Shown in pieces: positions 2 through 14,373 of a stretch of DNA of 64,000 bases. Positions within the stretch are counted from its first letter, which is position 1; the number at the start of each line of letters is the position of its first letter. The position numbers and the translations under genes are program-made. The DNA comes from Hydrogenophaga sp. GTDB taxonomy: Bacteria > Pseudomonadota > Gammaproteobacteria > Burkholderiales > Burkholderiaceae_C. The stretch is taken from contig NZ_JALHLX010000004.1 in assembly GCF_022844385.1 (NCBI RefSeq), forward strand, positions 14,832 to 78,831, given 5' to 3'. Below the pieces are notes generated by a model that saw only the letters and a list, made by a program, of their open reading frames with translations, ran no database searches and had not been told where the DNA came from.

Positions 2-655
2 CCGGCCAAGGTCGCGCTGTTGCTCGAAGAAACCGGACTGCCCTACGAACTGGTGCCGGTGGATACGCGCAAGGGCGAGCAGCACGAGGCCGCGTTCACG
101 GCGATCAATCCCAACGCGAAAACGCCGGCCCTGGTCGACGGCGACGCGGTGGTGTTCGACAGCAATGCCATCCTACTGTATCTGGCGGAGAAGTCCGGCC
201 AGTTCCTGCCGCCAGACACGCCCGAGGCCCGTGCACAGATGCTGTCTTGGTTAATGTTCGTCGCCACCGGGGTCGGCCCGTATTCCGGGCAGGCGGTTCA
301 TTTCAAACACTTTGCCCCCGAGCCCAAGGCCTATGCGGTCAACCGCTACGACTTCGAAGCCTGGCGCCACTGGAAGATCATCGACCAGCAACTGGCCCAG
401 CATCGCTACATGCTCGGCGAGACCTACACCCTGGTCGACATGGCTGTCTGGGGCTGGGCGCGCGCCGTGCCGTTTGTGCTCGGGGCCGCCGCGTGGGAGC
501 AGTTGCCCAACGTCAAGCGCCTGCTCGATGAGATCAACACCCGTCCGGCCGCTCAGCGTGCCGAAGCTCTCAAGGCCAAGCACGCCTTCAAGGCCGAGAT
601 GGACGAAGAGGCACGGGCAGTCATGTTCCCGCAAAACGCCCGTTTGACCGCCTGA
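2..655 (+). CDS. Glutathione S-transferase (YfcG/YghU-like), 5' end outside the window
   Basis: The frame is open from base 2 (PAKVALLLEETGLPYE). It has the NPNAKTPALVD and FDSNAILLYLAEK GST N-domain motifs plus GPYSGQAVHF and YTLVDMAVWGW in the C-domain. Confidence 0.9.
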   Translation, partial: PAKVALLLEETGLPYELVPVDTRKGEQHEAAFTAINPNAKTPALVDGDAVVFDSNAILLYLAEKSGQFLPPDTPEARAQMLSWLMFVATGVGPYSGQAVHFKHFAPEPKAYAVNRYDFEAWRHWKIIDQQLAQHRYMLGETYTLVDMAVWGWARAVPFVLGAAAWEQLPNVKRLLDEINTRPAAQRAEALKAKHAFKAEMDEEARAVMFPQNARLTA

Positions 656-809
656 GCGCAGGCGGCGTCGTCGGTGCACCAACGGGCGGCGTTCGCTTGG
701 CCGCAGCCGCTTGGTCCGGCAAGGGGCGCCGGGCTGACGCGATCCCGCTCAAATGACGGCCCATAACGTCCGAAGAGGGCTTCGACGTTCACCGACTCAA
801 CTTTCCTCC

Positions 810-3095
810 ATGCAAGTTTCCGAACAACCGATCCTGCGCGACCTTGTTCTCGTCGGAGGGGGCCACAGCCACGTTGTCGTGCTGCGCATGCTCGCCATGC
901 AACCCGAGTCTGGCCTGCGCATCACCCTCATCTGCACCGACATCGACACGCCTTACTCCGGCATGCTGCCTGGCTACATCTCGGGCCACTACAGCTTTGA
1001 CGAGGTGCACATCGACCTGGGCCGTCTGGCCTCGTTTGCCGGAGCGCGCTTCATCCATGGTGAAGTGACGGGCCTCGATCGGTCCAACCAGCGTGTGCTC
1101 ATGAAGGACCGGCCCTCGGTGCCGTACGACCTGCTCTCCATCAACATCGGCTCCACACCCAATGTGCGCCAGGTGAAAGGCGCGCAAGCACACGCAGTGC
1201 CCGTGAAGCCCATCGCCCACTTCAACCTCCGCTGGCTGAATCTGCTCGAGCGCGTGCGCCTGCTGCGCGATCGATTCACGATCGCGGTGGTCGGCGGCGG
1301 TGCGGGCGGGGTTGAACTGGTGCTGTCGATGCAGTACCGGCTGCGCAGCGAGCTGCAAAAGCTGGGGCGCAATCCCGATTGGCTGCACTTTGTGTTGCTC
1401 ACGGCGGGCGACTCCATCCTGCCGACGCACAACGCCGGGGTACGCGCGCGCTTTGCCCGCGTGCTCAAAGAGCGCCACGTCGCGGTGCATACGCGTGCGG
1501 AGGTGCATCAGGTCGCGCCCGGTTGCCTGCACACGCGCGACGGTCGAACCTTCGATGCCGACGAAACGATGTGGGTCACGCAAGCCGGTGGGCCGGCCTG
1601 GCTGCAAGGCACCGGTCTGGCACTGGACGAACACGGCTTCGTCAAAGTCAACGACCGGTTGCAGACGCTGGACGACCCCAAAATCTTCGCCGCAGGGGAT
1701 GTGGCCTCGTTCACCAACCGCCCGCTGGAGAAGGCCGGTGTGTTTGCCGTGCGCATGGGCCCACCGCTGGTGAAGAACCTGCGCTTGTGCCTGCGCGATC
1801 AGCCGACGGTGGCTTTCAACCCGCAACGCAAATGGCTGGCACTGATCTCCACCGGCAATCGATACGCCGTGGCCTCGCGCGGCTCCATCGGCTTCGCCGG
1901 TACCTGGGTCTGGTCCTGGAAGGACTGGATCGATCGCCGCTTCATGCGCCAGTTCACCGAGCTGCCAGACATGGCGCCCGGTGCCGCCCCCTCGGCTGCA
2001 CCGGCCAGCAGCCTGGCGCTGAGCGCCGAAGAATCCCGCCAGGCCATCTCGGCCATTGCCATGCGCTGTGGTGGTTGCGGCGCCAAGGTGGGCGCCAGCA
2101 TCCTGACCCGCGCACTCGGCAGCCTGCAACCGGTCGAGCGCAACGACGTGCTGATCGGGCTTCACTCGCCCGACGACGCCGCCGTGGTGCGCGTGCCGCC
2201 GGGCAAGGCCATGGTTCACACCGTGGACTTCTTTCGCAGCTTCATCGACGACCCTTACCTGTTCGGCAAGGTGGCGGCCAATCACGCGTTGGGCGACATC
2301 TTTGCCATGGGTGCCGAGCCTCAGTCCGCCACAGCGATCGCCACCGTGCCGCCAGGCCTCGAATCCAAGGTGGAAGACCTGCTGCTGCAAATGATGACCG
2401 GCGCGGTCGAGGTGCTCAACGCCGCCGGCTGCGCCTTGGTCGGTGGGCACACCGGTGAGGGCCGCGAACTCGCACTGGGCTTCGCCATCAACGGACTGAT
2501 CGACGAGAACATGGATGGCGTCATGCGCAAGGGCGGCATGCAAGCGGGTGACGTGTTGCTGCTCACCAAGCCCATCGGCACCGGCACGCTGTTCGCCGCC
2601 CACGCGCGGCACGCCGCCAAGGGCCGCTGGATCGATGCGGCGCTGAAATCCATGGTGGTGTCCAACCAGGTCGGCGCGCAGATCCTGCGCGAACATGGCG
2701 CCACCGCCTGCACCGACCTGACCGGTTTCGGCCTGCTGGGGCATCTGGTGGAAATGACCCGTCCCTCGGGAGTGGACGCAGAGCTGCAACTGAGCGCCCT
2801 GCCCTTGCTGGATGGTGCATTGGAATGCGTTGAAGCGGGCATCGTCAGCTCGCTGCAGCCGGCCAATGTGCGGCTGCGCCGAGCCCTGCGCAACGCCGAA
2901 GACTTCGTCAAAGACCCGCGCTATCCGCTGCTGTTCGACCCGCAGACGGCGGGCGGCCTGCTGGCCAGCGTGCCGGGCGACCGGGCAGCCGACTGCATCC
3001 GTTCCCTGCAGGCGGCAGGCTACCTGCACACAGCAGCCATAGGTCATGTCAGCGGCGCGTCCGACTCACTGGAACCCGTGGTGCTCAGCGCATAA
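810..3095 (+). CDS. selD: Selenide,water dikinase (SelD) fused to an N-terminal FAD-dependent pyridine nucleotide-disulfide oxidoreductase (NDH-2/SQR-like) domain
   Basis: N-half: LVLVGGGHSH, VVGGGAGGVE and IFAAGD. C-half: RCGGCGAKVG, DDAAVV, HTVDFF, ANHALGDIFAMG, LVGGHT, LTKPIGTG, TDLTGFGLLGHL, LLFDPQTAGGLL. ATG at 810 was chosen over the ORF-track start at 753. Confidence 0.9.
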   Translation: MQVSEQPILRDLVLVGGGHSHVVVLRMLAMQPESGLRITLICTDIDTPYSGMLPGYISGHYSFDEVHIDLGRLASFAGARFIHGEVTGLDRSNQRVLMKDRPSVPYDLLSINIGSTPNVRQVKGAQAHAVPVKPIAHFNLRWLNLLERVRLLRDRFTIAVVGGGAGGVELVLSMQYRLRSELQKLGRNPDWLHFVLLTAGDSILPTHNAGVRARFARVLKERHVAVHTRAEVHQVAPGCLHTRDGRTFDADETMWVTQAGGPAWLQGTGLALDEHGFVKVNDRLQTLDDPKIFAAGDVASFTNRPLEKAGVFAVRMGPPLVKNLRLCLRDQPTVAFNPQRKWLALISTGNRYAVASRGSIGFAGTWVWSWKDWIDRRFMRQFTELPDMAPGAAPSAAPASSLALSAEESRQAISAIAMRCGGCGAKVGASILTRALGSLQPVERNDVLIGLHSPDDAAVVRVPPGKAMVHTVDFFRSFIDDPYLFGKVAANHALGDIFAMGAEPQSATAIATVPPGLESKVEDLLLQMMTGAVEVLNAAGCALVGGHTGEGRELALGFAINGLIDENMDGVMRKGGMQAGDVLLLTKPIGTGTLFAAHARHAAKGRWIDAALKSMVVSNQVGAQILREHGATACTDLTGFGLLGHLVEMTRPSGVDAELQLSALPLLDGALECVEAGIVSSLQPANVRLRRALRNAEDFVKDPRYPLLFDPQTAGGLLASVPGDRAADCIRSLQAAGYLHTAAIGHVSGASDSLEPVVLSA

Positions 3096-3130
3096 GGAGC
3101 CAGCACCAATTCGCGCCCTCCGAAACCAGC

Positions 3131-3158
3131 TGTAACGAAAGAGGACCCGGCAGCGACT
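3131..3158 (+). promoter_or_regulatory. ECF (SigF-type) promoter motif TGTAACG-N16-CGACT
   Basis: It lies in the intergenic gap about 60 nt upstream of ATG 3217 and matches five other copies in the window and the GTAACC-N16-CGAA consensus of Caulobacter SigF. Confidence 0.75.
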
Positions 3159-3216
3159 GAAGAGCATTCGGGCAATCAACGATTGCCAAAGCCTGAACCC
3201 ACGAAGCCTTCGCCGC

Positions 3217-5367
3217 ATGAAAAGAACTCTGATCCTCGCCACGGTCGCGATGCTGGTGGCCGCCTATTTCTTGCTTGGGCTGGACCGCTACCTGACACTC
3301 GCCGCCGTGCAGGACCGCTTGGGAGACTTCGAAGCCATCCGCCAGGCCTCTCCCATCGCCACCGCGCTCGGTTTCTTCGGTCTGTACGTGCTGGCCACAG
3401 CTCTGTCACTGCCCGGTGCGGTGATCCTGACGCTCGCGGCTGGCGCCCTGTTCGGATTGGCCGGCGGCACGCTGATCGTCTCGTTCGCCTCCAGCCTGGG
3501 CGCCACACTGGCTTTTCTGGCCTCGCGTTACTTGCTCCGGGACAGCGTGCAGGCGCGTTTTGGCGACCGCCTCAAGGCCATCAACGACGGCATGGCCAAG
3601 GACGGCGCGTTGTATCTGTTCACACTGCGCCTGATCCCGGCCTTCCCGTTTTTCCTCGTCAACCTGCTCATGGGCTTGACACCCATCCGCACCGGCACCT
3701 ATTACTGGGTCAGCCAGCTCGGCATGCTCGCGGGCACCCTGGTCTATGTCAACGCCGGCACCCAGCTGGCCCAGCTCTCAAGTCTCTCGGGTATTTTGTC
3801 GCCGGGTGTTCTGCTGTCCTTTGTTCTGCTCGGCGTCTTCCCCATGATCGCCAAAGCCACTCTCGGTTACCTGCAACGCCGGCGCGTTTACGCCAAGTGG
3901 CAACGGCCCAAAACCTTTGACCGCAATCTGGTGGTCATCGGTGGCGGCGCTGCAGGCCTGGTCACCTCCTACATCGCGGCTGCGGTCAAGTCCAAGGTCA
4001 CGCTGGTCGAGGCACACAAGATGGGTGGCGATTGCCTGAACTACGGCTGCGTGCCCAGCAAGGCATTGATCAAGTCGGCCAAACTCGCCCAACAAATGCG
4101 CCATGCAGATCACTATGGACTGGAGGCTGCCACACCGGCCTTCAGTTTCCGGCAGGTGATGGCGCGGGTGCACCGGGTCATCAGCGAGATCGCTCCGCAC
4201 GACAGCGTGGAGCGCTACACCGGGCTGGGTGTCGAGGTCCTGCAGGGTCGCGCCAAAATCGTGGACCCCTGGACGGTCGAAGTCACCCTCAACGACGGTG
4301 GCATCCAACGCCTGACCACCCGCAGCATCGTCATCGCCGCGGGTGCTCGCCCCTTCGTGCCGCCGCTGCCTGGGCTGGACGACGTGGGCTATGTCACCAG
4401 CGACACCCTGTGGGATGAGTTCGCCAAACTGGACACGCCTCCGGCGCGCATGGTGGTGCTGGGCGGTGGTCCGATCGGCTGCGAGCTGGCACAGAGTTTC
4501 GCGCGCCTAGGCTCAAAGGTCACACAAATCGAAATGGCGCCCCGGATCATGATCCGGGAGGACCAGGAGGTGTCCGACCTCGCTCGCGATTCGCTGCAAC
4601 GCGACGGTGTGGATGTACTGACCGGTCACAAGGCACTGCGCTGCGAGCGGGAGGGAGACCACAAGTTCATCGTGGTGGAACATCAGGGTCAGGAAAAACG
4701 CATCGGGTTCGACACTTTGCTGTGCGCAGTCGGCCGATCGGCACGGCTGCAGGGCTACGGACTGGAAGATCTGGGCATACCAACCGAGCGCACGGTGGTG
4801 GTCAACGAGTACCTCGAAACGCTCTACCCCAACATCTTTGCTGCGGGTGACGTGGCCGGACCATTCCAGTTCACCCACACCGCCGGGCACCAGGCCTGGT
4901 ACGCCGCCGTCAACGCGCTGTTCGGCGGCTTCAAGAAATTCAAGGTCGACTACTCCGTCATCCCCTGGGCCACCTTCATAGAGCCCGAGGTTGCCCGGGT
5001 GGGACTGAATGAACAGGACGCCAAGGAAAAGAACATTCCCTACGAAGTCACGAAATACGGCATTGACGATCTGGATCGCGCCATCGCAGATGGTTCGGCA
5101 CACGGATTCGTCAAGGTGCTGACCGTGCCGGGCAAAGACCGCATTCTGGGCGTGACCATCGTGGGCGAACATGCAGGCGACCTGTTGGCCGAGTTCGTGC
5201 TGGCCATGAAGCACGGGCTTGGACTGAACAAGATACTGGGCACCATCCACACCTATCCCACAATGGCCGAGGCGAACAAATACGTCGCTGGTGAATGGAA
5301 ACGCGCTCACGCTCCTCAGCGCGTCCTGGCCTGGTTGGGTCGCTATCACGCCTGGCGCCGAGGCTGA
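3217..5367 (+). CDS. DedA/VTT (TVP38/TMEM64) membrane domain fused to a class I flavoprotein disulfide reductase (MerA/LpdA-like)
   Basis: N-terminal hydrophobic domain with LFTLRLIPAFPFFLVNLLMGLT, then VIGGGAAG, the redox motif GGDCLNYGCVPSK, LGGGPIGCE, AAGDV and HTYPT. Confidence 0.9.
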   Translation: MKRTLILATVAMLVAAYFLLGLDRYLTLAAVQDRLGDFEAIRQASPIATALGFFGLYVLATALSLPGAVILTLAAGALFGLAGGTLIVSFASSLGATLAFLASRYLLRDSVQARFGDRLKAINDGMAKDGALYLFTLRLIPAFPFFLVNLLMGLTPIRTGTYYWVSQLGMLAGTLVYVNAGTQLAQLSSLSGILSPGVLLSFVLLGVFPMIAKATLGYLQRRRVYAKWQRPKTFDRNLVVIGGGAAGLVTSYIAAAVKSKVTLVEAHKMGGDCLNYGCVPSKALIKSAKLAQQMRHADHYGLEAATPAFSFRQVMARVHRVISEIAPHDSVERYTGLGVEVLQGRAKIVDPWTVEVTLNDGGIQRLTTRSIVIAAGARPFVPPLPGLDDVGYVTSDTLWDEFAKLDTPPARMVVLGGGPIGCELAQSFARLGSKVTQIEMAPRIMIREDQEVSDLARDSLQRDGVDVLTGHKALRCEREGDHKFIVVEHQGQEKRIGFDTLLCAVGRSARLQGYGLEDLGIPTERTVVVNEYLETLYPNIFAAGDVAGPFQFTHTAGHQAWYAAVNALFGGFKKFKVDYSVIPWATFIEPEVARVGLNEQDAKEKNIPYEVTKYGIDDLDRAIADGSAHGFVKVLTVPGKDRILGVTIVGEHAGDLLAEFVLAMKHGLGLNKILGTIHTYPTMAEANKYVAGEWKRAHAPQRVLAWLGRYHAWRRG

Positions 5368-5423
5368 ACAATGACCACCATGGAACTGGCGCCCTGCACT
5401 GCGGTTGGCCGGCCTGGTGTTTT

Positions 5424-6125
5424 ATGAAGACCTTCGTGCCTCACACCCCCATGCGTCTGTCCATCATCGTCCCCATGCTCAACGAAGCAACGGGGCTGCC
5501 CCGCCTGCTGAATCGGCTGTCCGTGCTGAAGAGCCAGGGATGCGAGGTACTGATCGTGGACGGTGGAAGCGATGACGGCTGCGCTGAATTGGCCGCTCGA
5601 AAGGGCTTGCAGGTTCTGACTTCGCCAAGAGGTCGCGCCCGGCAGATGAACCACGGCGCTGCTCATGCGACGGGCAACGTGCTCCTGTTCCTGCACGCAG
5701 ACACCGTTCTGCCCGAGGGGGCGATCATCACCATCCGCCGAGCGATGCAAAGCTCCGGTGCCGTCTGGGGCCGTTTCGATGTGGTCATCGACGGACCTCA
5801 TCCCATGCTGCGCGTGGTGGCCCAGCTGATGAACCTTCGCTCGCGCTGGACGGGCATCGCCACTGGTGACCAGGCGATGTTTGTCACCCGCGAGGCCTTC
5901 AATGCAGCGGTTGGATTCCCCGACCAGCCCTTGATGGAAGACATCGAGTTGTCCAAGCGCCTCCTCGAACGATCGCGCCCTGCTTGCATCGGAAACACCG
6001 TGTTGACGTCGGGACGCCGATGGGAGAGCCGTGGCATCTGGCGAACCATCCTTCTGATGTGGCGGCTGCGCTGGGCGTACTGGCGAGGAGCACCTGCGGA
6101 TCAGTTGGCACAGCTGTACAAATAG
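5424..6125 (+). CDS. GT2 glycosyltransferase, TIGR04283 (arsenosugar-associated) type
   Basis: SIIVPMLNEA, VDGGSDDG, GRARQMNHGA, LFLHADT, GDQAMFV, LMEDIELS, TSGRRW. The start is 5424 or 5451. Confidence 0.85.
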   Translation: MKTFVPHTPMRLSIIVPMLNEATGLPRLLNRLSVLKSQGCEVLIVDGGSDDGCAELAARKGLQVLTSPRGRARQMNHGAAHATGNVLLFLHADTVLPEGAIITIRRAMQSSGAVWGRFDVVIDGPHPMLRVVAQLMNLRSRWTGIATGDQAMFVTREAFNAAVGFPDQPLMEDIELSKRLLERSRPACIGNTVLTSGRRWESRGIWRTILLMWRLRWAYWRGAPADQLAQLYK

Positions 6126-6133
6126 GACACCAC

Positions 6134-6772
6134 ATGAATCACTCTGTCCACATCATCGTCTTCGCCAAAGCACCCGTCGCAGGCCTTGCCAAGACAAGGC
6201 TGATCCCGGCGCTGGGAGCAACGGGCGCTGCCCGCCTGGCTGCCTTGATGTTGAAACATGCGGTAGCACAGGCGCTGGCCAGCGAGGTGGGCACTGTGGA
6301 GGTGTGTGTGACGCCTGCGCCTGAAGATCCCATGTGGTCGGAGCTGTTGCCGCAGCACGCAGCGCTGCGCATCAGCGATCAAGGCCATGGTGACTTGGGA
6401 GAGCGAATGGCGCGGGCTGCTCAACGTGCGTTGGCCGCGGGCCACGCGGTGCTGTTGATGGGAACCGATTGCCCGGATCTCACCGCCGAGCGAATTCGAA
6501 TGGCGGCAGCGAACTTGCTCACCAGCGATGCCGCGCTCGTACCAGCCTTTGACGGTGGCTATGTCTTGCTGGCACTGAACCGCTTTGATGCCAGCCTATT
6601 TCGAGACATCGCCTGGAGCACCTCCAGCGTGGCGCAGGTCACGCGGTCTCGGATGGGCCAGTTGGGCTGGAGCGCGACCACCTTGTCAACGCTGCACGAC
6701 ATCGATGAGCCCGATGATCTTCGTTGGCTGCCCGAGGCTTTGCTGCCGGCTGGCATTCAGCAGCCGAAGTGA
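6134..6772 (+). CDS. TIGR04282/DUF2064-type transferase (CofC-like nucleotidyltransferase/GT-A fold)
   Basis: VFAKAPVAGLAKTRL, QGHGDLGERM, GTDCPDL, PAFDGGYVLL, DIDEPDDL; ATG at 6134 follows AGGA. Confidence 0.85.
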   Translation: MNHSVHIIVFAKAPVAGLAKTRLIPALGATGAARLAALMLKHAVAQALASEVGTVEVCVTPAPEDPMWSELLPQHAALRISDQGHGDLGERMARAAQRALAAGHAVLLMGTDCPDLTAERIRMAAANLLTSDAALVPAFDGGYVLLALNRFDASLFRDIAWSTSSVAQVTRSRMGQLGWSATTLSTLHDIDEPDDLRWLPEALLPAGIQQPK

Positions 6773-6777
6773 TGTGA

Positions 6778-7230
6778 TCAGTTGGCAGTCGCCGCAGCGG
6801 CGATACCTTCGAGCGCCTTGCGCAGGTTCTCGACCACGGGGCACTGCGCAACACCATGGCGCTGGGCGAGAAAGGCTGGGTCGTTGTAACCCACCCAGAC
6901 TTGGGCTGATGCGTCCTCCCACACCAACGCCTTGAGCGGCAGGTCGATGCCAACCGATTGCGCGCACTCCATGAAAGGTGTTCCGCCCTGCGGATTGCCG
7001 AAGATGAGCACCTCGGTGGGTCGAAGGGGCCTGCCCACCTTGGTCGCGCCAGCGGCATGGTCGATGCGCGCGAACACGTTCAGGCCCCGTTGTTTGACGA
7101 TGTCCTCCAGCCGGTCCATGGTCGCCTTCGCACCATGAGGACTCTTGACTGCGATCAGACCATCGGCGGCATTGACCAGGCCGAGGGTGGATGTCAGAAC
7201 GAGTGCAGCGATGGCGTGAAAAACTCGCAT
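6778..7230 (-). CDS. DUF302 family exported protein
   Basis: Signal peptide-like N-terminus, then VFARIDHAAGA, LIFGNPQGGTPFM and IGIDLPLKALVWED. Confidence 0.8.
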   Translation of the reverse strand: MRVFHAIAALVLTSTLGLVNAADGLIAVKSPHGAKATMDRLEDIVKQRGLNVFARIDHAAGATKVGRPLRPTEVLIFGNPQGGTPFMECAQSVGIDLPLKALVWEDASAQVWVGYNDPAFLAQRHGVAQCPVVENLRKALEGIAAAATAN

Positions 7231-7341
7231 GGGAAGCCTCCTTGGGGTTGGGGTGGCGCAGCCTGGCTGCTTCAGAGCTTGTGAGAGGCACTCAGCCTCC
7301 AACAAGTTCTCAGGTTCTACGCAGATGACTTCGGAACTGGA

Positions 7342-8187
7342 TCAAGACCGGAGCTGGGACACCCAGGTCTTCTGTGCCTCGGACATCGCTTCGTCGGGCG
7401 TGAGCAGCGCCCCGGTGAGCGCTGTGCGGATCGAGGCTTCGGGCACTGGCAGCGTCTGCGACAACAGCGCGTCGAGCAGGCGACGTGCCTTGGCCAGGCT
7501 CTGGCCGTAGAGCTCGAACACGGCCGACACGCTGACGTGTTGCGTGGGGTCGTCGAGCCAGCAGTCGTAGTCGGTCACCAGGCCCACGGTGGCATAGGCC
7601 ATCTGGGCCTCGCGCGCCAGAAACACCTCGGGTGCGTTGGTCATGCCCACCAGGTGGCAACCCATCTGCCGCAGCAGGTGGCTCTCGGCCTGGGTGCCCA
7701 AGCGGGGGCCGTCCACGCAGGCGTAGGTCAGGCCGCGGTGCACCGAGAGGCCAGACTTGTCTGCAGCGGCCATGACCGCATCGACCAGCGCACTGCTCAC
7801 GGGCTTGGCGGTGGAGACATGTGCTGCGACACCGTCACCGAAGAAAGTTCGCTCGCGCGCACCGCGCGTCCAGTCGATGTACTGCTCGGGCATCGCAAGC
7901 TCGCCAGGCGCGACTTGGATGGCCAGGCTGCCCACGGCCGAAAAGCCCAGCATCATGGTGGCGCCTGCACGCTTGAGCGCATACACGTTGGCGCGGTAGT
8001 TCACTTCGTGCGGCAACAGCCGGTGACCGGCCCCGTGGCGCGCCAGAAACAGCACCGCCTGGCCGTGCAAGGTGCCGCGCAACACCTCGCCCGATGGCGT
8101 GCCGAACGGCGTGTCGCCGCCCTGACGTTCGTGGATGTCCAGACCGTCGAGTTCGTAGAGGCCGGTGCCTCCGATGATGGCGAGCAT
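7342..8187 (-). CDS. mtnP: 5'-methylthioadenosine / purine nucleoside phosphorylase (MTAP family)
   Basis: AIIGGTGLY, TPFGTPS, FLARHG, NYRANVYALK, GPRLGT, VGMT, VTDYDCW. Confidence 0.88.
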   Translation of the reverse strand: MLAIIGGTGLYELDGLDIHERQGGDTPFGTPSGEVLRGTLHGQAVLFLARHGAGHRLLPHEVNYRANVYALKRAGATMMLGFSAVGSLAIQVAPGELAMPEQYIDWTRGARERTFFGDGVAAHVSTAKPVSSALVDAVMAAADKSGLSVHRGLTYACVDGPRLGTQAESHLLRQMGCHLVGMTNAPEVFLAREAQMAYATVGLVTDYDCWLDDPTQHVSVSAVFELYGQSLAKARRLLDALLSQTLPVPEASIRTALTGALLTPDEAMSEAQKTWVSQLRS

Positions 8188-8190
8188 GGT

Positions 8191-9195
8191 TCAGTTCTCC
8201 AGTGGGCGCACGGCGTCCTGCAGCTGATAGGCCGGACCGTGCTGGATGCGGTTGAAGTAGGAGGCGTGGGCGTCGCTGCCCTCGGGCCACAGCTTTTGGA
8301 ATTGCCGCTGCCAGGCGGCGGTATCGATTTCGATGGCGATGGCGTCGATGTGAACCTCACGCTCGACCACGCCGAAACGACGCTCGGCGCCCGTGTACGG
8401 CGAGAGCGCGATGCGGGTGATCAGGCCCGCCGCATCGCCCTGGAAGTTGGGCATGCCGGTGGCGCCGTTGTTGAACACCCAGCGTGCGTGGTCTTGCTTT
8501 GAAGCAAGGCGCTGGAACACGGGCAGACAGGTGTGCGTGCTGGCAAAGGCGTGCACGTCAGCCTCGTCGAACCAGCGTTTCACCGCCTCGCGGTGCACGG
8601 CGTCGCGCAGGTGCTCCTGCGCAAAGCCCCAGCCGGCGAGCGACTGCGCGTCGCCATGCACCACGCCCAGACGCAGTGGACCGACATCGGCGCGCAGCCA
8701 CATCGGCAAGGACCGCAGTTCGCGCTGCTGCTCGGGTGTGACGCAGCTGCGCAGCGCTTTGTGAATGCGGTTGGAGCGTTCGACCACCTGGTCTCCCACC
8801 CAGTCGGGGTAGGCGCAACCGCAGCCGGCATCGGCATCGGCGCTTTCATCGGCGTTCTGGTCGGCCAGCTCGGTCTCCACATTGCCGCGCAAGGCATCAA
8901 AGCGCATCACCGATTGCTGGATGCGGGTGAACACGGCTGGATCGGCGTCAAACCAATGGAAGTCGCCGTTGAACACCATGCGGGCTCGCCCGCGCTCCTG
9001 CCCGAACAGTTCGATCACGCGCTGCAGTGCGGCCTCGTTGCCATACAAGCCGCCCACCACATAAAGCACATCGAGATCTCTCAGGTGCTCAGGCGCCGCG
9101 CTGGCGAACACCGAGGGCGCGTAGCGGTAGTGCAGTGGGCAGCTTCTGCCGGCAGTCGCAGGCGAGGCATCGAGCGTGGGAGCGTCAATGTTCAT
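8191..9195 (-). CDS. Hypothetical protein with degenerate calcineurin-like metallophosphoesterase motifs
   Basis: Motif order VVGGLYGN, FNGDFHWFD, LRGNVE, VVHGD, STHTCLP, NNGATG. ATGA overlap with the upstream ATPase and a 3-nt gap to the phosphorylase. Confidence 0.65.
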   Translation of the reverse strand: MNIDAPTLDASPATAGRSCPLHYRYAPSVFASAAPEHLRDLDVLYVVGGLYGNEAALQRVIELFGQERGRARMVFNGDFHWFDADPAVFTRIQQSVMRFDALRGNVETELADQNADESADADAGCGCAYPDWVGDQVVERSNRIHKALRSCVTPEQQRELRSLPMWLRADVGPLRLGVVHGDAQSLAGWGFAQEHLRDAVHREAVKRWFDEADVHAFASTHTCLPVFQRLASKQDHARWVFNNGATGMPNFQGDAAGLITRIALSPYTGAERRFGVVEREVHIDAIAIEIDTAAWQRQFQKLWPEGSDAHASYFNRIQHGPAYQLQDAVRPLEN

Positions 9196-10037
9196 GGGGT
9201 ACTTCGTTGCAGGGTTGGCAGGCAAGCCGTCAGCGCCGGCGTCGGGCATGGGTTGGGTGTTGAACAGCGGTCGGTTGGCATCGGGCTCAGGCTAGACGCA
9301 TACAGCGCCTGCAGCCGTTCGGCATCGACCTGAGCGATCGGCAAGTCAAATTCCAGCGCGCCATCGCGAAGGCCGATCACGTGATCGGCCAACAACGGCA
9401 GCAGCGCAGGCTGGTGTACCACGGTGATCAGTGTGGCGCCACCGGCGATGCTGCACAGCCATCGGCAGGCATCGGCGGCGGCGGCCGGGTCCAGATTGGC
9501 CGTGGGTTCGTCGGCCAGGATGAGGCGCGGGCGCTGCAGACGCAGGCGTGCAATGCTGAGCTTCTGGCGTTCGCCCCCCGAGAGACGGTCGGTGCGTGTA
9601 TCGCCCAGACCCTCCAGACCAACCACAGCAAGCGCCTCGTCGGCCTCAGCCACGAGCGTCGCGGGGTACAGGCGGCTCCAGCTGCGCCAGCCGCTCAGGC
9701 GTCCCAGCGCGCCGATCAACACGTTCTCGCGCGCGCTCAAGCGCGACACCATGTGCAGCCCCTGCATGACCTGGCCCACCTCGCTCCGCCAGGCGCGCAG
9801 CGCGGCGTCGGACACCGGCTCCTGCAGCGGCCGCCCCAGCACGCTGACCGATCCTTCGGTGGGAACCGCCAGGCCACCGAGCACCCGCAGCAGCGTCGAT
9901 TTGCCCGCGCCGTTGTGCCCGACGATGGCCACCCGCTCGCCGGCACCGATGTGCAGTTCGTCCAGTCGCAGCAAGGTCCGCGCACCGGCTTTCACGGCCA
10001 GCTTGCGGATGTGGATGTCGTGTGTTGTGGCGCTCAC
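9192..10037 (-). CDS. PhnC-like ABC transporter ATP-binding protein
   Basis: Walker A GHNGAGKS, signature LSGGERQK, ILADEPTANLDP; the GTG start overlaps the permease stop. Confidence 0.9.
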   Translation of the reverse strand: MSATTHDIHIRKLAVKAGARTLLRLDELHIGAGERVAIVGHNGAGKSTLLRVLGGLAVPTEGSVSVLGRPLQEPVSDAALRAWRSEVGQVMQGLHMVSRLSARENVLIGALGRLSGWRSWSRLYPATLVAEADEALAVVGLEGLGDTRTDRLSGGERQKLSIARLRLQRPRLILADEPTANLDPAAAADACRWLCSIAGGATLITVVHQPALLPLLADHVIGLRDGALEFDLPIAQVDAERLQALYASSLSPMPTDRCSTPNPCPTPALTACLPTLQRSTP

Positions 10038-10930
10038 AGCAAAGCCTGGCGTATGCGCCGAGAGAGGCTGTCGAACGCCACCACCAGCGCGATGACGACG
10101 AGCAGGATGGTGGCCAGGCGGCTCCACTGGAACAGGCTGACCGCCTCGGAGATCAGCAGGCCGAGGCCGCCCGCGCCGATGAGGCCCAGGATGGTCGAGT
10201 CGCGGATGTTGAACTCCCAGATGTAGAGGTGGTTCGACACGAACTGGGGCAGCACGGCGGGCCACACGGCGTTGAAGAAGACCTGGGTGCGCGACGCGCC
10301 GGTGGCTTGCACGGCGTGGATGGCGCCCATGTCCAGCGACTCGACCGACTCCGCGTACAGCTTGCCGTAGGTGCCCATGGAATGCAGCGCAATGGCCAGT
10401 ATGCCGGCGGTCGGACCCAGGCCAACAATGCCCACCAGCACCAGGCCGAACACCAGTGTGTGAATGGCGCGCAGCACGTCAAGCAGACCTTTGCTCGCCC
10501 AGGCCAGCCAGCGAGGTGCGCCCAGGTTGCGCGCGCTCAGCAGGCCGGGGGGCAAGGCCAGCAAGGCCCCCAGCAGCGAACCCAGGGTGGCGATCTGGAA
10601 CGTGACCCAGGTGGCACGCCCCAGTGCCGCCAGAAAATCGGCCTCCACCACGCGGCGGTCTTCCACGCGCAGCAAGGTGCCGTCGTCGCTGCGGTATTCC
10701 AGGCGCTCCGGCCCGAACCACACATCCAGAAAACTCGGGTACGCGAATTCACCGATCGACTTGATCAGATTGGCCACGGGGTTGCGCCCCAGCGACAACT
10801 CGCCCGCCACCCAGAGGCTGCCCAGGCAGACGCCCACCAGCAGCGCATAGGCGAGCACCAGCAGCGCAAAACGCGCCCGACCGGACCAACGCGGTGGCGA
10901 GAAAGGCGGCTGGATCAGCAGCGCGCTCAC
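10034..10930 (-). CDS. PhnE-like ABC transporter permease
   Basis: LRAIHTLVFGLVLV, GKLYAESVE, WEFNIRDSTILGLIGAGGLG. Confidence 0.9.
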   Translation of the reverse strand: MSALLIQPPFSPPRWSGRARFALLVLAYALLVGVCLGSLWVAGELSLGRNPVANLIKSIGEFAYPSFLDVWFGPERLEYRSDDGTLLRVEDRRVVEADFLAALGRATWVTFQIATLGSLLGALLALPPGLLSARNLGAPRWLAWASKGLLDVLRAIHTLVFGLVLVGIVGLGPTAGILAIALHSMGTYGKLYAESVESLDMGAIHAVQATGASRTQVFFNAVWPAVLPQFVSNHLYIWEFNIRDSTILGLIGAGGLGLLISEAVSLFQWSRLATILLVVIALVVAFDSLSRRIRQALL

Positions 10931-11793
10931 TTGGGCTGCAGCGTGCCAGTGGCCAGACCAGCGTCCCGGATCGGCTTGTAGGCCCGGTTGTCGCTGTTGA
11001 TGAAGCCGGTGTAGCTCGGCGGCATCAGACCGGGCTGCGTCTTGAGAAGGGGGCCAACCTCAGCCAGCGCCGCCTGCAGGCGCGCCACGAAGGCCTTGTC
11101 CTTGTGGAGCGCTTCGCTGACGGCAAACGCGTCGTTGGGCAAAGGATCGGACTGCCAGATGATCTTCGAGCGCTCGGCTTTGATCAGGCCCTGCGCGATC
11201 ATCGCGTCGCGGTTGCGGTTGTAGTCGGCGCCAGCGTCGATCTGCCCGGCAGTGACCTGGGTCTGGATCGCCTGGTGCTTGGTGTGCAGCACGCGAGAAA
11301 AATGCTTCGCGGGATCGATGCCCTGCTTCATGAAGAAATGCAGCGGGATCAGGTAACCGGAGGTGGATCCTTTGTCGCCAAAGGCAAAGGTGCGCCCTTT
11401 GAGGTCGGCCACCGAATTGATGCCCGAGTCCGGATGGGTGACGATCATCGCGAAGTATTCGGGCTTGCCTTCGTACAGGATGGTCGAGACCACCTGGGCA
11501 TTGGCCGCCTGGTTGGCCAGCACGTAGCCCCACGGACCCATCAAGGCCAGGTCGGTTTCACCATTGGCGAGCGACTTGGCCAAGCCTTCCCAGCTGTCGA
11601 CTGTGCGCAGCTCTACCGGGCGACCCAGGCGCTGCGAGAGGTGTTGCGCCAGCGGCCGGTAGGTGGCGTCGTTGCGCTCGCGATCGGGCTGGAACAGGCC
11701 GACACCGAATTTCAGCGGCGTGGTCTGTGCCTGTGCGGTGAGCGTTGCGAGCAGCAGGAACAGGCTGGCCAGCCAGCGGGTGAACACGATCAT
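10927..11793 (-). CDS. PhnD-like phosphate/phosphonate/oxyanion ABC substrate-binding protein
   Basis: Signal peptide, GPWGYV, FAFGDKGSTSGYLIP, SDPLPNDAF; the ATG overlaps the radical SAM stop (ATGA). Confidence 0.9.
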   Translation of the reverse strand: MIVFTRWLASLFLLLATLTAQAQTTPLKFGVGLFQPDRERNDATYRPLAQHLSQRLGRPVELRTVDSWEGLAKSLANGETDLALMGPWGYVLANQAANAQVVSTILYEGKPEYFAMIVTHPDSGINSVADLKGRTFAFGDKGSTSGYLIPLHFFMKQGIDPAKHFSRVLHTKHQAIQTQVTAGQIDAGADYNRNRDAMIAQGLIKAERSKIIWQSDPLPNDAFAVSEALHKDKAFVARLQAALAEVGPLLKTQPGLMPPSYTGFINSDNRAYKPIRDAGLATGTLQPK

Positions 11794-12836
11794 GGGGTCT
11801 CTCCTGAAGTTACGGTTTGGGATGGGCTTTGATGCGCGGCATGAACAGAAATCGTCGCTGCCGCTGGGTCGGCCGACTCCAGTGCACCACCGCAACTGCT
11901 GCCCTGTCCTGCGGTGCAGCCGTAGCAGTGGTCAGCAATCCGGATGGCCTCGCCTTCGGGATCCGCACCGAGCAGTTCCCGCAGGTGCGGACGGTAGGTC
12001 TTGCCCAGGCGGGCCGGCAGCCCCAGCATCTGGTTGAAGTCGCAGTCGTACAGATCGCCCTGCCAGTCCACGCTGATCATGGAGCGGCACATCACGGTGT
12101 TGAGGTTGTCGGCCTGGTACGCCTGCTTGAGCAGTTGCATATAGGTGACGAAGGTGCCCTTGGAGACCAGGGTGCTCCCAAAACGCTGCACCGGCATGTT
12201 GGTCAGCGCAAACAGGTGGTTGAAGCGGATGCCGAAGTGCTGCAGCAGCTCGCGCTTGTAGTCGGCCTCCAGTGCACCTTGCGGTGGTGGTAACGACGGG
12301 CCTTGGGGGTTGTAGACGAGATTGAGCGTGAGACCACTGTCCGGCACTCCGTAACCCAGCGCGTTGAGTTGCTGCAGCCCGGTGATGCTGAGATCGAACA
12401 CGCCATCGCCCCGCTGACGATCGACATTGGCCGGGGAATAACACGGCATGGAAGCCACCACCTGAACACCTTGCTCAGCCAGGAAGGCCGCCAGGTCTTC
12501 CTGACCGGGCTCGCTGAGGATGGTCAGGTTGCAGCGGTCGATCACCGCGACACCCAGGCTCCGTGCCGCCACCACCAGGCGCCTGAAGTGGTCACTGAGT
12601 TCCGGCGCGCCCCCGGTGAGGTCCAGCGTGGTGATGCGCCTGGCTTTCAGCACCTCGATCACCAGGTCCACCGTTGCCCCGTCCATCATTTCGGTGCGGT
12701 TGGGGCCGGCGTTGACGTGGCAATGCAGGCAGGACTGGTTGCAGCGGTAACCGAGGTTGACCTGCAGAGTGGTCAGGGGTTGGCGCCGGATGGCGGGAAA
12801 GTCGGTGGCGGTGAGCAGCGGCAGGGTGTCGTGCAT
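11790..12836 (-). CDS. arsS: Radical SAM / Cys-rich protein of the ArsS (TIGR04167, DUF3641) family
   Basis: CxxxCxxC in NLGYRCNQSCLHCHVNAGP, LDLTGGAPEL, YDCDFNQML and the C-terminal HCYGCTAGQGSSCGGAL (Cys, not UGA, at every position read). Confidence 0.88.
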   Translation of the reverse strand: MHDTLPLLTATDFPAIRRQPLTTLQVNLGYRCNQSCLHCHVNAGPNRTEMMDGATVDLVIEVLKARRITTLDLTGGAPELSDHFRRLVVAARSLGVAVIDRCNLTILSEPGQEDLAAFLAEQGVQVVASMPCYSPANVDRQRGDGVFDLSITGLQQLNALGYGVPDSGLTLNLVYNPQGPSLPPPQGALEADYKRELLQHFGIRFNHLFALTNMPVQRFGSTLVSKGTFVTYMQLLKQAYQADNLNTVMCRSMISVDWQGDLYDCDFNQMLGLPARLGKTYRPHLRELLGADPEGEAIRIADHCYGCTAGQGSSCGGALESADPAAATISVHAAHQSPSQTVTSGETP

Positions 12837-12940: not shown

Positions 12941-13576
12941 TCACCACCTCAGCAGCCGCGGACCGAGGACCGCGCCCAGCAGCCCAGTCAGCAGGACTCC
13001 CAGCGAGTACCAGACTGCCACAAACGTGGCCGAGACCTCAGGACACACCAGGGAATAACCCATGGCGCCCAGTGCGCCGGCCATCAATCCAGCGTTGAAG
13101 CCGGCAGCCCGCAGTTGGGTGGGTGCGAGTCCGCGAAGCGCCCACAGTGCGCCGGCCAGTGCCGGCAACGAAAGCGCCACCACATTCGTTGGGCAGCTGA
13201 GCCAGGTTTCGCCAAACAGGGCCGCCATGCGTTGATCCGGCGCGCTGGACACCAGCGTGAGCGCGCCCAGGGCCAGCATGGTGGCAAACACAGCCAACAC
13301 GGCCCGCACGGGCCAGTGCGTGCGCGCCACCGGCCGGGAAAGCCTCGCCGTCAACCAGCCAGCCGCCAGCGCCAAGCTGCCGCCGTACATGAGCTTCAGC
13401 CACGGTGCCTGCGTAGCCCACATGGTCACTGGGATCGATCCCATGCTCACCAGCGCGGACAAGGCGCTGGCGATCAAGCCAAGCGCCACCACTGGGGCCA
13501 GTCGCCGCAGCACGGGCGCCTGGGGGGCAGGCCCTGCGCCCTTGGCCAACATCTCGATCAACGATTGCGTTTTCAT
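12941..13576 (-). CDS. nrsF: NrsF-type (DUF1109) membrane anti-sigma factor
   Basis: MKTQSLIEMLAKG start, six hydrophobic segments, Cys motifs WLSCP, RGLAPT and YSLVCPE...FVAVWY; ATGA-coupled to the sigma gene. Confidence 0.85.
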   Translation of the reverse strand: MKTQSLIEMLAKGAGPAPQAPVLRRLAPVVALGLIASALSALVSMGSIPVTMWATQAPWLKLMYGGSLALAAGWLTARLSRPVARTHWPVRAVLAVFATMLALGALTLVSSAPDQRMAALFGETWLSCPTNVVALSLPALAGALWALRGLAPTQLRAAGFNAGLMAGALGAMGYSLVCPEVSATFVAVWYSLGVLLTGLLGAVLGPRLLRW

Positions 13577-14139
13577 GTTCCTGTGTCTTTCACCCATTGC
13601 GCCAGCCGCTTCAACCCTCTGTGCACTTGTACCTTGATGGCCGACTCCGAGATGCCGGTGCGCATCGATGCTTCGGTTACCGACAGCCCCTCGATCTTCG
13701 TCAACACGATGGCCTGACGTTGAACATGTGGCAACTCCTGAAGCAGCCTTTCAAGGTCTCGCTGCGCACCGTCTTCGACCGGCTCGGCTGCCAGCAAGGC
13801 CTCGTCCACATCGTCCAGCGCGTCGTGGAGGTTCTCCCGCCGCCCACGGCGCCTCCAGAGATCGACCAGCTTGTGGCGAGCGATCGCGGTGACCCAGGCG
13901 CTGACCGGCAACGTCGGGTCAAAGGTTCCGCGTTGCAGATGAAGTGCCAGCAGCGTTTCCTGCACCAGGTCTTCGATGTCGTCTGGCGTCGACTGCATGC
14001 GCCGCCGCAGGAATCCGCGGATGCGCAACGCGATCTTCTCCAGCGCCTCGCGGTAAGCGACCTCATCGCCTTGCTGCGCACGCAGCCACAGCGGTTTCAG
14101 GCTGGCTTCGAAATCGTTGGGACCTGTCTCTCTAGGCAT
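13573..14139 (-). CDS. sigF: ECF RNA polymerase sigma factor (SigF/EcfF, ECF16-like)
   Basis: EDLVQETLLALH, WVTAIARHKLVD, LTKIEGLSVTEAS, IKVQVHRGLKRL; directly upstream of an NrsF-type gene. Confidence 0.85.
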   Translation of the reverse strand: MPRETGPNDFEASLKPLWLRAQQGDEVAYREALEKIALRIRGFLRRRMQSTPDDIEDLVQETLLALHLQRGTFDPTLPVSAWVTAIARHKLVDLWRRRGRRENLHDALDDVDEALLAAEPVEDGAQRDLERLLQELPHVQRQAIVLTKIEGLSVTEASMRTGISESAIKVQVHRGLKRLAQWVKDTGT

Positions 14140-14166
14140 TTCGTGGCAGCGGCTGCTTTGGTTACA
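14140..14166 (-). promoter_or_regulatory. ECF promoter motif TGTAACC-N16-CGAA (autoregulatory)
   Basis: The reverse strand reads TGTAACCAAAGCAGCCGCTGCCACGAA, abutting the sigma ATG at 14139. Confidence 0.75.
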
Positions 14167-14235
14167 CAAATGGGGGGGCGGCATGAACAAGTGCCGACCA
14201 AAGGCAGGGTTGTTGGCCCGGGATTCTGCACTGCC

Positions 14236-14263
14236 TGTAACCGAAAGGCCTCCGGCTTCGTAA
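14236..14263 (+). promoter_or_regulatory. ECF promoter motif TGTAACC-N16-CGTAA
   Basis: TGTAACCGAAAGGCCTCCGGCTTCGTAA, upstream of the DUF547 gene and back to back with the sigma promoter. Confidence 0.75.
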
Positions 14264-14373
14264 ATCAAAGGCCCTTCCATCCCTTTCAACCCGTCAAGAC
14301 AAGCCAGATGAAAACTTCTTCCACGCCCGCCTCGCGCGTGGTCACGACGCAGCCCTTGTCCGAGGGCCTTGTC

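Follow-up and report, generated by a model that had tools for sequence, protein, structure and literature searches.

The locus examined here raises the question of what a selenophosphate synthetase (SelD) fused to a flavoprotein does beside an ArsS-type radical SAM gene and its companions, and whether it works for that gene cluster or for the cell at large. The window, a stretch of 64,000 nucleotides from a Hydrogenophaga sp. contig, carries the fusion gene at the head of a plus-strand operon (Table 1). A sequence-only reading had proposed an enzyme dedicated to the cluster rather than to the synthesis of selenocysteine (Sec) or tRNA selenouridine (SeU). We therefore consider the protein, the selenium genes of its genome and its neighbourhood in related bacteria.

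Table 1. Features of the fusion gene and its neighbours in the window.
Feature	Position	Strand	Evidence
Whole gene: TIGR03169 flavoprotein fused to SelD, 761 aa	810..3095	+	ORF translation, NCBIfam, Pfam
NDH-2-like FAD/NAD(P)H flavoprotein domain, residues 1-384	810..1961	+	TIGR03169, 493.5 bits; Foldseek
FAD dinucleotide-binding motif GGGHSH, residues 16-21	855..872	+	Conservation in 103 fusions
Second dinucleotide (NAD(P)H) motif GGGAGG, residues 162-167	1293..1310	+	Conservation
GVFAVR, residues 310-315, aligned to NDH-2 quinone motif AQxAxQ	1737..1754	+	HMMER alignment
Ala/Pro-rich linker, residues ~385-405	1962..2024	+	Sequence
SelD (PurM-fold) domain, residues ~406-761	2025..3092	+	TIGR00476; PDB matches; Foldseek
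Active-site loop C420-G-G-C423-G-A-K426	2067..2087	+	HMMER alignment to 3u0o
His492 codon, at the position of E. coli SelD Asn87	2283..2285	+	Alignment to 3u0o
DedA/VTT membrane domain fused to MerA/glutathione-reductase-like flavoprotein	3217..5367	+	Profile matches
TIGR04283 GT2 and TIGR04282 (DUF2064) transferases, overlapping ORFs, starts putative	5295..6772	+	284.4 and 200.2 bits, above cut-off
Convergent operon: ArsS-type radical SAM, PhnD/E/C-like ABC importer, 352-aa protein, MTA-phosphorylase-like enzyme	7342..12836	-	

Architecture of the fusion and its flavoprotein domain

The reading frame starts at the ATG at 810 and ends with the stop codon at 3093-3095; an alternative ATG at 753 is unsupported because the homologues begin at the Met of 810. 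NCBIfam assigns residues 11-382 to TIGR03169 (Nterm_to_SelD; 493.5 bits, cut-off 310), covering profile positions 1-365 of 365, and residues 418-724 to TIGR00476 (SelD; 294.7 bits, cut-off 125). Pfam finds Pyr_redox_2, AIRS and AIRS_C. With HMM E-values as low as 1e-148, the identity of the domains is far beyond chance. The linker reads PDMAPGAAPSAAPASS (about residues 385-400) and is the sole low-confidence stretch (pLDDT 56-81) in the AF2 model, which was calculated with a 103-sequence alignment (pLDDT 95.4, pTM 0.95). The model used rests on that alignment, and a prediction from the single sequence (pLDDT 37.7) was set aside. The profile scores and the linker sequence bear out the earlier description of an FAD/NAD(P)H oxidoreductase of about 400 residues joined by an Ala/Pro linker to a full SelD. 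A scan of positions 500-7400 returned no promoter-like sites, and terminator-like sites occurred at chance level.

Fusions of this kind are already known; they have been catalogued since 2005-2008, are annotated by NCBI and amount to thousands of sequence clusters. The NADH-dehydrogenase-like/SelD type is the commonest SelD fusion, and it was proposed that its flavoprotein serves SelD by reducing a selenium compound (Zhang 2008, BMC Genomics, PMC2432076; Mariotti 2015, Genome Res, PMC4561486). The present protein is a member of this group and shows no essential difference from it, having the same N-terminal COG1252-type flavoprotein (TIGR03169) and C-terminal Cys-type SelD (TIGR00476) that are found in selenium-using genomes. 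Its gene is 100% identical to one on a Hydrogenophaga intermedia contig, and close relatives bear the NCBI name 'selenide, water dikinase SelD'. The list of close-relative proteins (at least 8000) provided names only; sequence diversity was taken from representatives of 50%-identity clusters, which included at least 150 full-length fusions, and conservation was counted in an alignment of 103 diverse fusions. A literature search of partial coverage found no biochemical characterization of any such fusion. The points that are new here are a clade-specific CxxC pair, a His at the Asn87 site of SelD, Val and Arg in place of the quinone-motif glutamines, and the senB and ArsS contexts.

Foldseek identifies the two-Rossmann flavoprotein fold of NDH-2 in the N-terminal domain, with TM scores of 0.85-0.88 to NDH-2 (Bacillus subtilis YjlD and Caldalkalibacillus thermarum NDH-2, 4nwz) at about 20% identity. 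NDH-2 and the domain also have in common their two Rossmann dinucleotide motifs and an amphipathic, Trp-rich helix at the C-terminus. Within the FAD motif, Gly16, Gly18 and His19 are invariant and His21 occurs in 100 of the 103 fusions; free-standing TIGR03169 proteins also retain this motif. Gly162, Gly164 and Glu169 of the NAD(P)H motif region are likewise invariant in the fusions. Quinone binding in NDH-2 is defined by the motif AQxAxQ, which is absent from the N-terminal domain. At the aligned segment, HMMER comparison with 4nwz and 9pxk places Val311 and Arg315 of the fusion at Gln317 and Gln321 of NDH-2, and Gly310, Val311, Ala313, Val314 and Arg315 are invariant across the fusion clade. 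Compared with NDH-2, the fusion thus has invariant Val and Arg for the two glutamines and an attached SelD. The fold match to SQR is weaker (TM 0.77), and no Cys of the domain is conserved among the 103 fusions (position 42 is Cys in just five of them), so redox-active flavin cysteines of the SQR type were rejected. In the N-terminal domain, then, the FAD and NAD(P)H sites are intact, the quinone-motif glutamines have been lost, and a cysteine pair is lacking.

Active site of the SelD domain

The C-terminal domain matches SelD in Foldseek and in the PDB (3u0o, 4e-46; 2yye, 1.5e-38). It shares with the Escherichia coli and Aquifex aeolicus enzymes the PurM-like fold, a Gly-rich N-terminal loop with a catalytic Cys and Lys, and the four metal/ATP-binding Asp residues; it differs from them in the added 384-residue flavoprotein and in the replacement of Asn87 by His. 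HMMER alignment to 3u0o reads the loop as M-R-C420-G-G-C423-G-A-K426 and places Cys423 at E. coli Cys17 and Lys426 at Lys20. The catalytic position is therefore a Cys codon and not UGA, in agreement with the sequence-only reading. Asp456, Asp473, Asp496 and Asp636 correspond to E. coli Asp51, Asp68, Asp91 and Asp227, each being present in at least 101 of the 103 fusions.

The pattern of the loop is C-x-x-C-G-x-K in the fusion, in contrast to G-x-x-C-G-C-K in the E. coli and A. aeolicus enzymes and GGGCGCK in the free-standing SelDs of the host family. Cys420, Cys423 and Lys426 are present in 101, 100 and 101 of the 103 fusions, respectively, and the Cys420/Cys423 pair is a conserved, newly noted feature of the clade. 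At the Asn87 position, where the free-standing SelDs of the host family retain Asn (in ATNAISD), 102 of the 103 fusions have His, and the fusion thus departs from the conserved-Asn feature of SelD. Asn87 of E. coli SelD is essential according to a report cited in PMC4210487; the chemistry of the fusion may therefore differ in detail. The TIGR00476 score of the fusion (~295 bits) is lower than that of free-standing SelDs (~430 bits). Membership in TIGR04369, an oxidoreductase/SelD-related family named 'fusion_not_SelD', was rejected (470.8 bits against a cut-off of 700). Cys420-x-x-Cys423, His492 and Val311/Arg315 provide concrete handles for a biochemical study of the fusion.

Selenium genes of the host and the role of the fusion

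The fusion is the only selD in this Hydrogenophaga genome (assembly 94% complete). An intact selU (346 bits, cut-off 219.75) lies on another contig of the draft assembly, which has 2% contamination. The earlier suggestion to look for selenium genes in the genome was thus answered by selU; no selA, selB, senB or yqeC was found in the 94%-complete assembly, the best match to SenB (TIGR04348) reaching 63.7 bits against a cut-off of 300. SelD occurs in 137 and SelU in 136 of 151 genera of the host family, and the 14 genera that lack SelD also lack SelU. In 19 of the 21 fusion-bearing genera the fusion is the sole SelD, and SelU is kept in 20 of the 21; the fusion is therefore predicted to make selenophosphate. 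Judged from this gene content, it must serve tRNA selenouridine synthesis. Both the genome and the family thus speak against the proposed dedication to the cluster.

Taken together, the fusion is a member of the known family; its C-terminal domain is probably a working selenophosphate synthetase with SelU as its client, and its flavin domain would reduce selenium. Because SelU is the one recognizable client in the genome, it would be a housekeeping enzyme rather than one private to the cluster. In the proposed mechanism, NAD(P)H would reduce the flavin of the N-terminal domain, and the reduced flavin would act on a selenium species, possibly a selenotrisulfide, a perselenide or a selenite-derived adduct, held at or near the clade-specific Cys420-x-x-Cys423 pair on the mobile SelD loop. 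If selenium is reduced at this pair, selenide would arise at the kinase site without being released. Transfer of a selenium species from the flavin domain, after reduction there, to the SelD site is plausible; the reduction step, its substrate and the channelling are our inference. The fusion might plausibly have a further role in the ArsS/transferase module beside it; the adjacent ArsS/TIGR04283/TIGR04282 genes may use its flavoprotein domain, its selenophosphate or both.

The senB and ArsS contexts and alternative roles

The gene belongs to a selenium-handling neighbourhood of the Comamonadaceae. Relatives have senB, egtD, a putative selenate ABC importer and DedA proteins there, and the present locus has the ArsS/TIGR04283/TIGR04282 module instead. 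Orthologues of the fusion (70-76% identical) lie directly 3' of senB, in the position of SenC, in 46 of 79 related species loci, and the SenB proteins next to such orthologues score 454 and 419 bits (cut-off 300). SenB is a proven user of selenophosphate (bioRxiv 10.1101/2022.04.13.486033). The arrangement resembles the senABC selenoneine cluster of Variovorax paradoxus (Kayrouz et al. 2022), where a SelD gene, senC, also stands beside a selenophosphate-consuming small-molecule enzyme; the present fusion differs in having TIGR04283, TIGR04282 and ArsS rather than SenB beside it, whereas many of its orthologues elsewhere do follow senB. The residue numbers in PMC11929427 suggest that the V. paradoxus SenC is a SelD without a fusion partner. 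In many selenoneine-type loci of the Burkholderiales, the SenC position is taken by the fusion.

The physical link between the fusion and the cluster is real and recurs among relatives. In the window, TIGR04283 and TIGR04282 come after the fusion with the DedA-reductase gene between, and in four other loci they lie directly 3' of it, 4-50 nt away. Limnohabitans-type loci have the entire ArsS module as an insertion separating senB from the fusion; there ArsS is divergent and lies ~170 nt from the fusion start. Four genomes have SelD, TIGR03169 and ArsS within 5-20 kb of one another. All 26 ArsS genomes of the host family carry TIGR03169, 19 as a free-standing protein, usually inside the operon, and seven in the fused form (uncorrected Fisher P between about 1e-12 and 1e-15); since the genera are related, these statistics overstate the case. 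A literature search of partial coverage found no paper tying TIGR03169 to ArsS clusters. Occurrence in the host family is nested, from ArsS (26 genomes) through TIGR03169 (about 52) to SelD (137), and the chance of finding no TIGR03169 among the 14 SelD-less genomes is ~0.002, uncorrected for kinship. The co-occurrence of SelD and ArsS itself is uninformative (P = 0.06) because 91% of the family has SelD. A general link between ArsS and TIGR03169 was rejected, as TIGR03169 was found in just 2 of the 106 ArsS genomes sampled across the phylum.

These contexts raise the possibility, which we regard as doubtful, of a dual use in which the fusion, besides serving SelU, would feed selenophosphate to the GT2/DUF2064/ArsS/MTA-phosphorylase module for an organoselenium sugar or nucleoside. 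The adjacency in the window and in relatives, the insertion beside senB, the nested occurrence and the precedent of SenC feeding SenB are consistent with it. However, 104 of the 106 ArsS genomes do without TIGR03169, Synechococcus elongatus, taken as a control, has ArsS with neither SelD nor TIGR03169, NCBI treats TIGR04167, TIGR04282 and TIGR04283 as arsenosugar genes, and the selenium chemistry of the module members is putative. Unlikely in our view is the stronger form, that the Comamonadaceae module as such is a selenium or dual arsenic/selenium pathway, in which the flavoprotein would reduce imported selenium, SelD would activate it and the module would build a seleno-sugar or seleno-nucleoside. 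If this were true, it would be a further SelD-dependent selenometabolite trait beside Sec, SeU, the molybdenum-hydroxylase cofactor, selenoneine and ovoselenol.

The same association might instead concern the flavoprotein only. The Comamonadaceae ArsS module would then need a TIGR03169-type reductase, possibly for a pentavalent methylarsenical or another metalloid substrate, and the N-terminal domain of the fusion would substitute for it in genomes that lack a free-standing copy, with the SelD chemistry uninvolved. We hold this to be possible but doubtful. The presence of TIGR03169 in every ArsS genome of the family points to it, as do the five genomes that have ArsS with the fused form alone and the place of the fusion at the head of the operon. 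Free-standing TIGR03169 proteins lack a SelD domain; those of the ArsS-type (TIGR04167/04282/04283) clusters of Comamonadaceae share with the fusion the motifs GxGHxH, YSGMxPG, KxGVxAVRxG and WxWKDxIDRxF and the same neighbours, namely ArsS, GT2, DUF2064, DedA-reductase and MTA-phosphorylase-like genes. On the other hand, they are only 30-40% identical to the fused N-terminal domains, from which they may differ in substrate; in four of the five genomes the fusion and ArsS lie on separate contigs; and the association is specific to this lineage of related genera.

If there is a functional basis for the link between ArsS and TIGR03169, then either an ArsS-type pathway takes in selenium or TIGR03169 flavoproteins are general metalloid reductases. 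Either outcome would give a function to a large family whose NCBIfam entry is now a hypothetical-equivalog domain and whose name states no particular function, and the repeated placement of the fusion beside selenium- and arsenic-type small-molecule clusters is worth a test at the bench.

Two other explanations are much weaker than the housekeeping role in SeU synthesis. A cluster-private enzyme serving neither SeU nor Sec synthesis, for which gene adjacency is the one argument, is very improbable, since the fusion is the sole SelD of a genome that retains SelU, as in most fusion-bearing genera, and losses of SelD and SelU coincide in the host family. It is equally hard to credit that the SelD-like domain has diverged in function, for example towards the formation of thiophosphate or another phospho-chalcogenide: the clade-wide His492 and Cys420, a loop with CxxC rather than CxC, the reduced TIGR00476 score and the name of the related TIGR04369 would suit such a drift, but the score is far over the SelD cut-off and that for TIGR04369 is under its own, the equivalents of Cys17, Lys20 and all four Asp are retained, and genomes with SelU and SenB depend on the fusion as their sole SelD.

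The fused N-terminal domains score 477-531 bits against TIGR03169, compared with 314-390 bits for the free-standing proteins. In many relatives, a DedA or DedA-reductase gene lies after or near SelD or the fusion.

Probable selenophosphate synthesis by the fusion

The gene encodes a two-domain fusion in which the FAD, NAD(P)H, and SelD catalytic residues are all intact. The fusion serves the cell as its only SelD and has SelU as its client. The single open frame comprises 761 codons and starts with the ATG at 810. A longer frame from the ATG at 753 was rejected because the alignments of relatives at 70–100% identity begin at the Met encoded at 810. NCBIfam models were matched by both halves (see the table), and Pfam detected Pyr_redox_2, AIRS, and AIRS_C. 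The halves are joined by an Ala/Pro-rich linker, and the active-site loop reads C420-G-G-C423-G-A-K426. Therefore, the sequence-only reading, which had described a flavoprotein, an Ala/Pro linker, and a SelD domain with a CGGCGAK loop, was right in every detail. The model for "oxidoreductase/SelD-related fusion" proteins (TIGR04369, fusion_not_SelD) gave 470.8 bits, under its cut-off of 700, and was rejected.

Flavoprotein-SelD fusions are already known as a kind. Zhang et al. (PMC2432076) proposed that the flavoprotein part acts on a selenium compound, reducing it for use by SelD. Mariotti et al. 2015 (PMC4561486) described this as "by far the most common" SelD fusion, in which the flavoprotein is always N-terminal and SelD is always the Cys form, and predicted that selenophosphate synthetase activity is retained. 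At least 8000 relatives were counted in 90%-identity clusters, and among the 50%-identity cluster representatives at least 150 are fusions of full length; close relatives are named "selenide, water dikinase SelD" by NCBI. A literature search turned up no biochemical work on the fusion.

The SelD half was aligned with HMMER to the SelD proteins of E. coli (3u0o, E 4e-46) and Aquifex (2yye). Cys17 and Lys20 of E. coli SelD correspond to C423 and K426, and the four metal/ATP-binding Asp residues correspond to D456, D473, D496, and D636. Each of these six residues is at least 97% conserved among 103 diverse full-length fusions, which were drawn from the 50%-identity cluster representatives and are 39–53% identical to the window's. 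Within this bacterial family, free-standing SelDs have a GGGCGCK loop and an ATNAISD segment, whereas the fusion clade departs at both places. A second Cys, C420 (101/103), gives the mobile loop a C-x-x-C pair, and His492 (102/103) occupies the position of E. coli Asn87. PMC4210487, citing the E. coli structure paper, reports Asn87 to be essential for catalysis. Both changes are conserved features and not marks of decay.

The window comes from a draft genome of 3.9 Mb in 237 contigs (completeness 94%, contamination 2%), which contains no selD other than the fusion. An intact selU lies on another contig (346 bits, cut-off 219.75; 355-codon ORF), while selA, selB, senB (TIGR04348), and yqeC gave no match above cut-off in this genome. 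The earlier proposal that the fusion is dedicated to the neighbouring cluster rather than to Sec/SeU synthesis, for which a search for selA, selB, and selU had been named as a check, is therefore unsupported; of that interpretation, the architecture stands and the dedication does not. In a family sample of 151 genomes, one per genus, SelD was found in 137 and SelU in 136, and every one of the 14 genomes without SelD falls among the 15 without SelU. The fusion occurs in 21 of the 151; it is the sole SelD in 19 of these, and SelU is kept in 20. Therefore, the fusion is very probably the housekeeping enzyme for selenophosphate synthesis. No better evidence is available than this pattern that the SelD domain is functional with His492 in place.

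A contig of Hydrogenophaga intermedia encodes a protein 100% identical to the fusion, and identity to the proteins of other Hydrogenophaga is 83–96%. A 2041-bp contig of Acidovorax soli DSM 25157 encodes residues 1–556 with 100% identity, a sign of either contamination or a very recent transfer.

Flavoprotein half and proposed mechanism

An AlphaFold2 model built with the alignment of the 103 fusions had a pLDDT of 95.4 and a pTM of 0.95, with low confidence in the linker only. In Foldseek comparisons of this model, the C-terminal domain matched SelD, and the N-terminal domain matched the NDH-2 enzymes B. subtilis YjlD (TM 0.88) and those of Caldalkalibacillus thermarum (0.85) and S. aureus (0.83) better than sulfide:quinone oxidoreductases (0.77). 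Both dinucleotide-binding motifs, GGGHSH for FAD and GGGAGG for NAD(P)H, are invariant in the fusion clade. NDH-2 enzymes bind quinone through an AQxAxQ motif. The aligned segment in the fusion is GVFAVR; Q317 and Q321 of the C. thermarum enzyme are replaced by V311 and R315, both invariant across the clade. No Cys of the N-terminal domain is conserved among the 103 fusions (C42 is Cys in just five), which rules out an enzyme of the SQR or disulfide-reductase type. Thus, the domain has an NDH-2-like predicted fold and is probably not a quinone reductase.

We infer that the flavin would be reduced by NAD(P)H and that the acceptor would be a selenium species, because the flavoprotein has neither the quinone motif nor a dithiol of its own. 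C420/C423 of the flexible SelD loop would probably bind the selenium in selenotrisulfide or perselenide form, and the resulting selenide would be phosphorylated in situ. An anionic substrate would be compatible with the invariant Arg315, which lies at what was the quinone site. This mechanism is a more specific form of the published hypothesis, and the earlier idea that selenide may be channelled to the kinase site stands as a conjecture.

Neighbourhood of the fusion and its relatives

Features of the window, the fusion protein, and related loci
Feature	Position	Strand	Remarks
Fusion gene	window 810–3095	+	
TIGR03169 ("Nterm_to_SelD", pyridine nucleotide-disulfide oxidoreductase family protein)	residues 11–382		493.5 bits, cut-off 310
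TIGR00476 (SelD)	residues 418–724		294.7 bits, cut-off 125
YfcG-like glutathione-dependent disulfide oxidoreductase (GST fold)	window 20–655	+	just upstream of fusion
DedA/VTT membrane domain fused to MerA/glutathione-reductase-like flavoprotein (DedA-reductase)		+	downstream of fusion
TIGR04283 GT2; TIGR04282 (DUF2064) transferase		+	downstream of fusion
ArsS-type radical SAM (TIGR04167, 456 bits), PhnD/E/C-like ABC importer, 352-aa protein, MTA-phosphorylase-like enzyme			convergent operon
352-aa protein	window 8191–9249	-	between ABC ATPase and phosphorylase genes
ECF sigma factor and NrsF-like anti-sigma pair	window 12941–14505	-	flank ArsS
senB and fusion, Limnobacter	L072:8950–12289		SenB 454 bits, cut-off 300
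senB and fusion, Limnohabitans	L031:8967–12355		SenB 419 bits, cut-off 300
ArsS module between senB and fusion, Limnohabitans-type	L037, L039, L054, L062: about 4600–10000 in each		
Split set, second Hydrogenophaga (G138)	L091:1–14503		
Hydrogenophaga MAG, fusion 93% identical	L011:10001–19200		

The usual neighbour of the fusion is senB. Of 79 related species loci with an orthologous fusion, 46 had SenB in the fetched flank by tblastn, and in about 40 of these it ended directly at the fusion start; its end meets or overlaps the start codon in the Limnobacter and Limnohabitans loci of the table. Close by are egtD, a TIGR04553 putative selenate-binding protein with PhnC/E partners, a YHS (seleno)protein, a DedA gene, and weak YedE-like and rhodanese-like matches. 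SenB, a selenosugar synthase, consumes the selenophosphate that SenC makes (Kayrouz et al., bioRxiv 10.1101/2022.04.13.486033), and the fusion therefore occupies the SenC position in much of Burkholderiales. No SenB was found in the window's genome. The second Hydrogenophaga, which lacks ArsS, carries egtD and senB together with an unfused canonical SelD, the DedA-reductase, and a divergent free-standing TIGR03169 protein; thus, fused and split states of one gene set coexist within the genus.

The neighbourhood is not accidental. Some of the cluster genes lie within 10 kb of an orthologous fusion in 20 of 80 species-level loci, in two layouts. In Hydrogenophaga-type loci, GT2 and DUF2064 follow the fusion on the same strand, nearly gapless in L012 and L015–L017. 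In Limnohabitans-type loci, a divergent ArsS, separated from the start of the fusion by about 170 nt, heads GT2, DUF2064, the 352-aa protein, and the phosphorylase; in four of them these five genes are inserted between senB and the fusion. The MAG locus lacks the DedA-reductase, GT2, DUF2064, and CrcB-like genes, and its fusion directly abuts the minus-strand ArsS operon. The upstream YfcG-like gene is kept in L008–L010, and L094 (G110) has a copy with 82% identity next to its ArsS cluster.

TIGR03169 flavoproteins and ArsS

ArsS was found in 26 of the 151 genera, and every one has a TIGR03169 member (Fisher's exact P ~5e-12 to 4e-15, overstated because the genera are related). The SelD fusion is present in seven (G000, G009, G052, G064, G100, G121, and G143), and five ArsS genomes, including the window's, have the fused form only. 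A free-standing form occurs in 19 (one at 300 bits, cut-off 310; two split), usually within the ArsS operon in the order ArsS, sometimes DedA-reductase, GT2, DUF2064, TIGR03169, and MTA-phosphorylase-like gene. It is 30–40% identical to the N-terminal domain of the fusion, with common motifs. None of the 14 SelD-less genomes has TIGR03169 above cut-off (P ~0.002, likewise overstated by kinship).

When 301 genomes were sampled across the phylum, ArsS occurred in 106, TIGR03169 in 32, and both in only two; the link is limited to this lineage. As a control, Synechococcus elongatus has ArsS and lacks both SelD and TIGR03169. Therefore, ArsS chemistry in general needs no such flavoprotein; the cluster as it occurs in Comamonadaceae apparently does. 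The ArsS/transferase module might use the fusion's flavoprotein domain only, a tentative reading, and its use of the fusion's selenophosphate is just as doubtful; alternatively, it may use neither. The gene itself is of modest interest, and the greater interest lies in the putative link of this flavoprotein family, SelD, SenB, and ArsS-type clusters.

The 352-aa protein, which had no NCBIfam match at E 1e-5, accompanies the ArsS module in several genera with 43–99% identity. L095 and L106 also have the ECF sigma/NrsF-like pair flanking ArsS, a sign that the module may be under regulation of its own.
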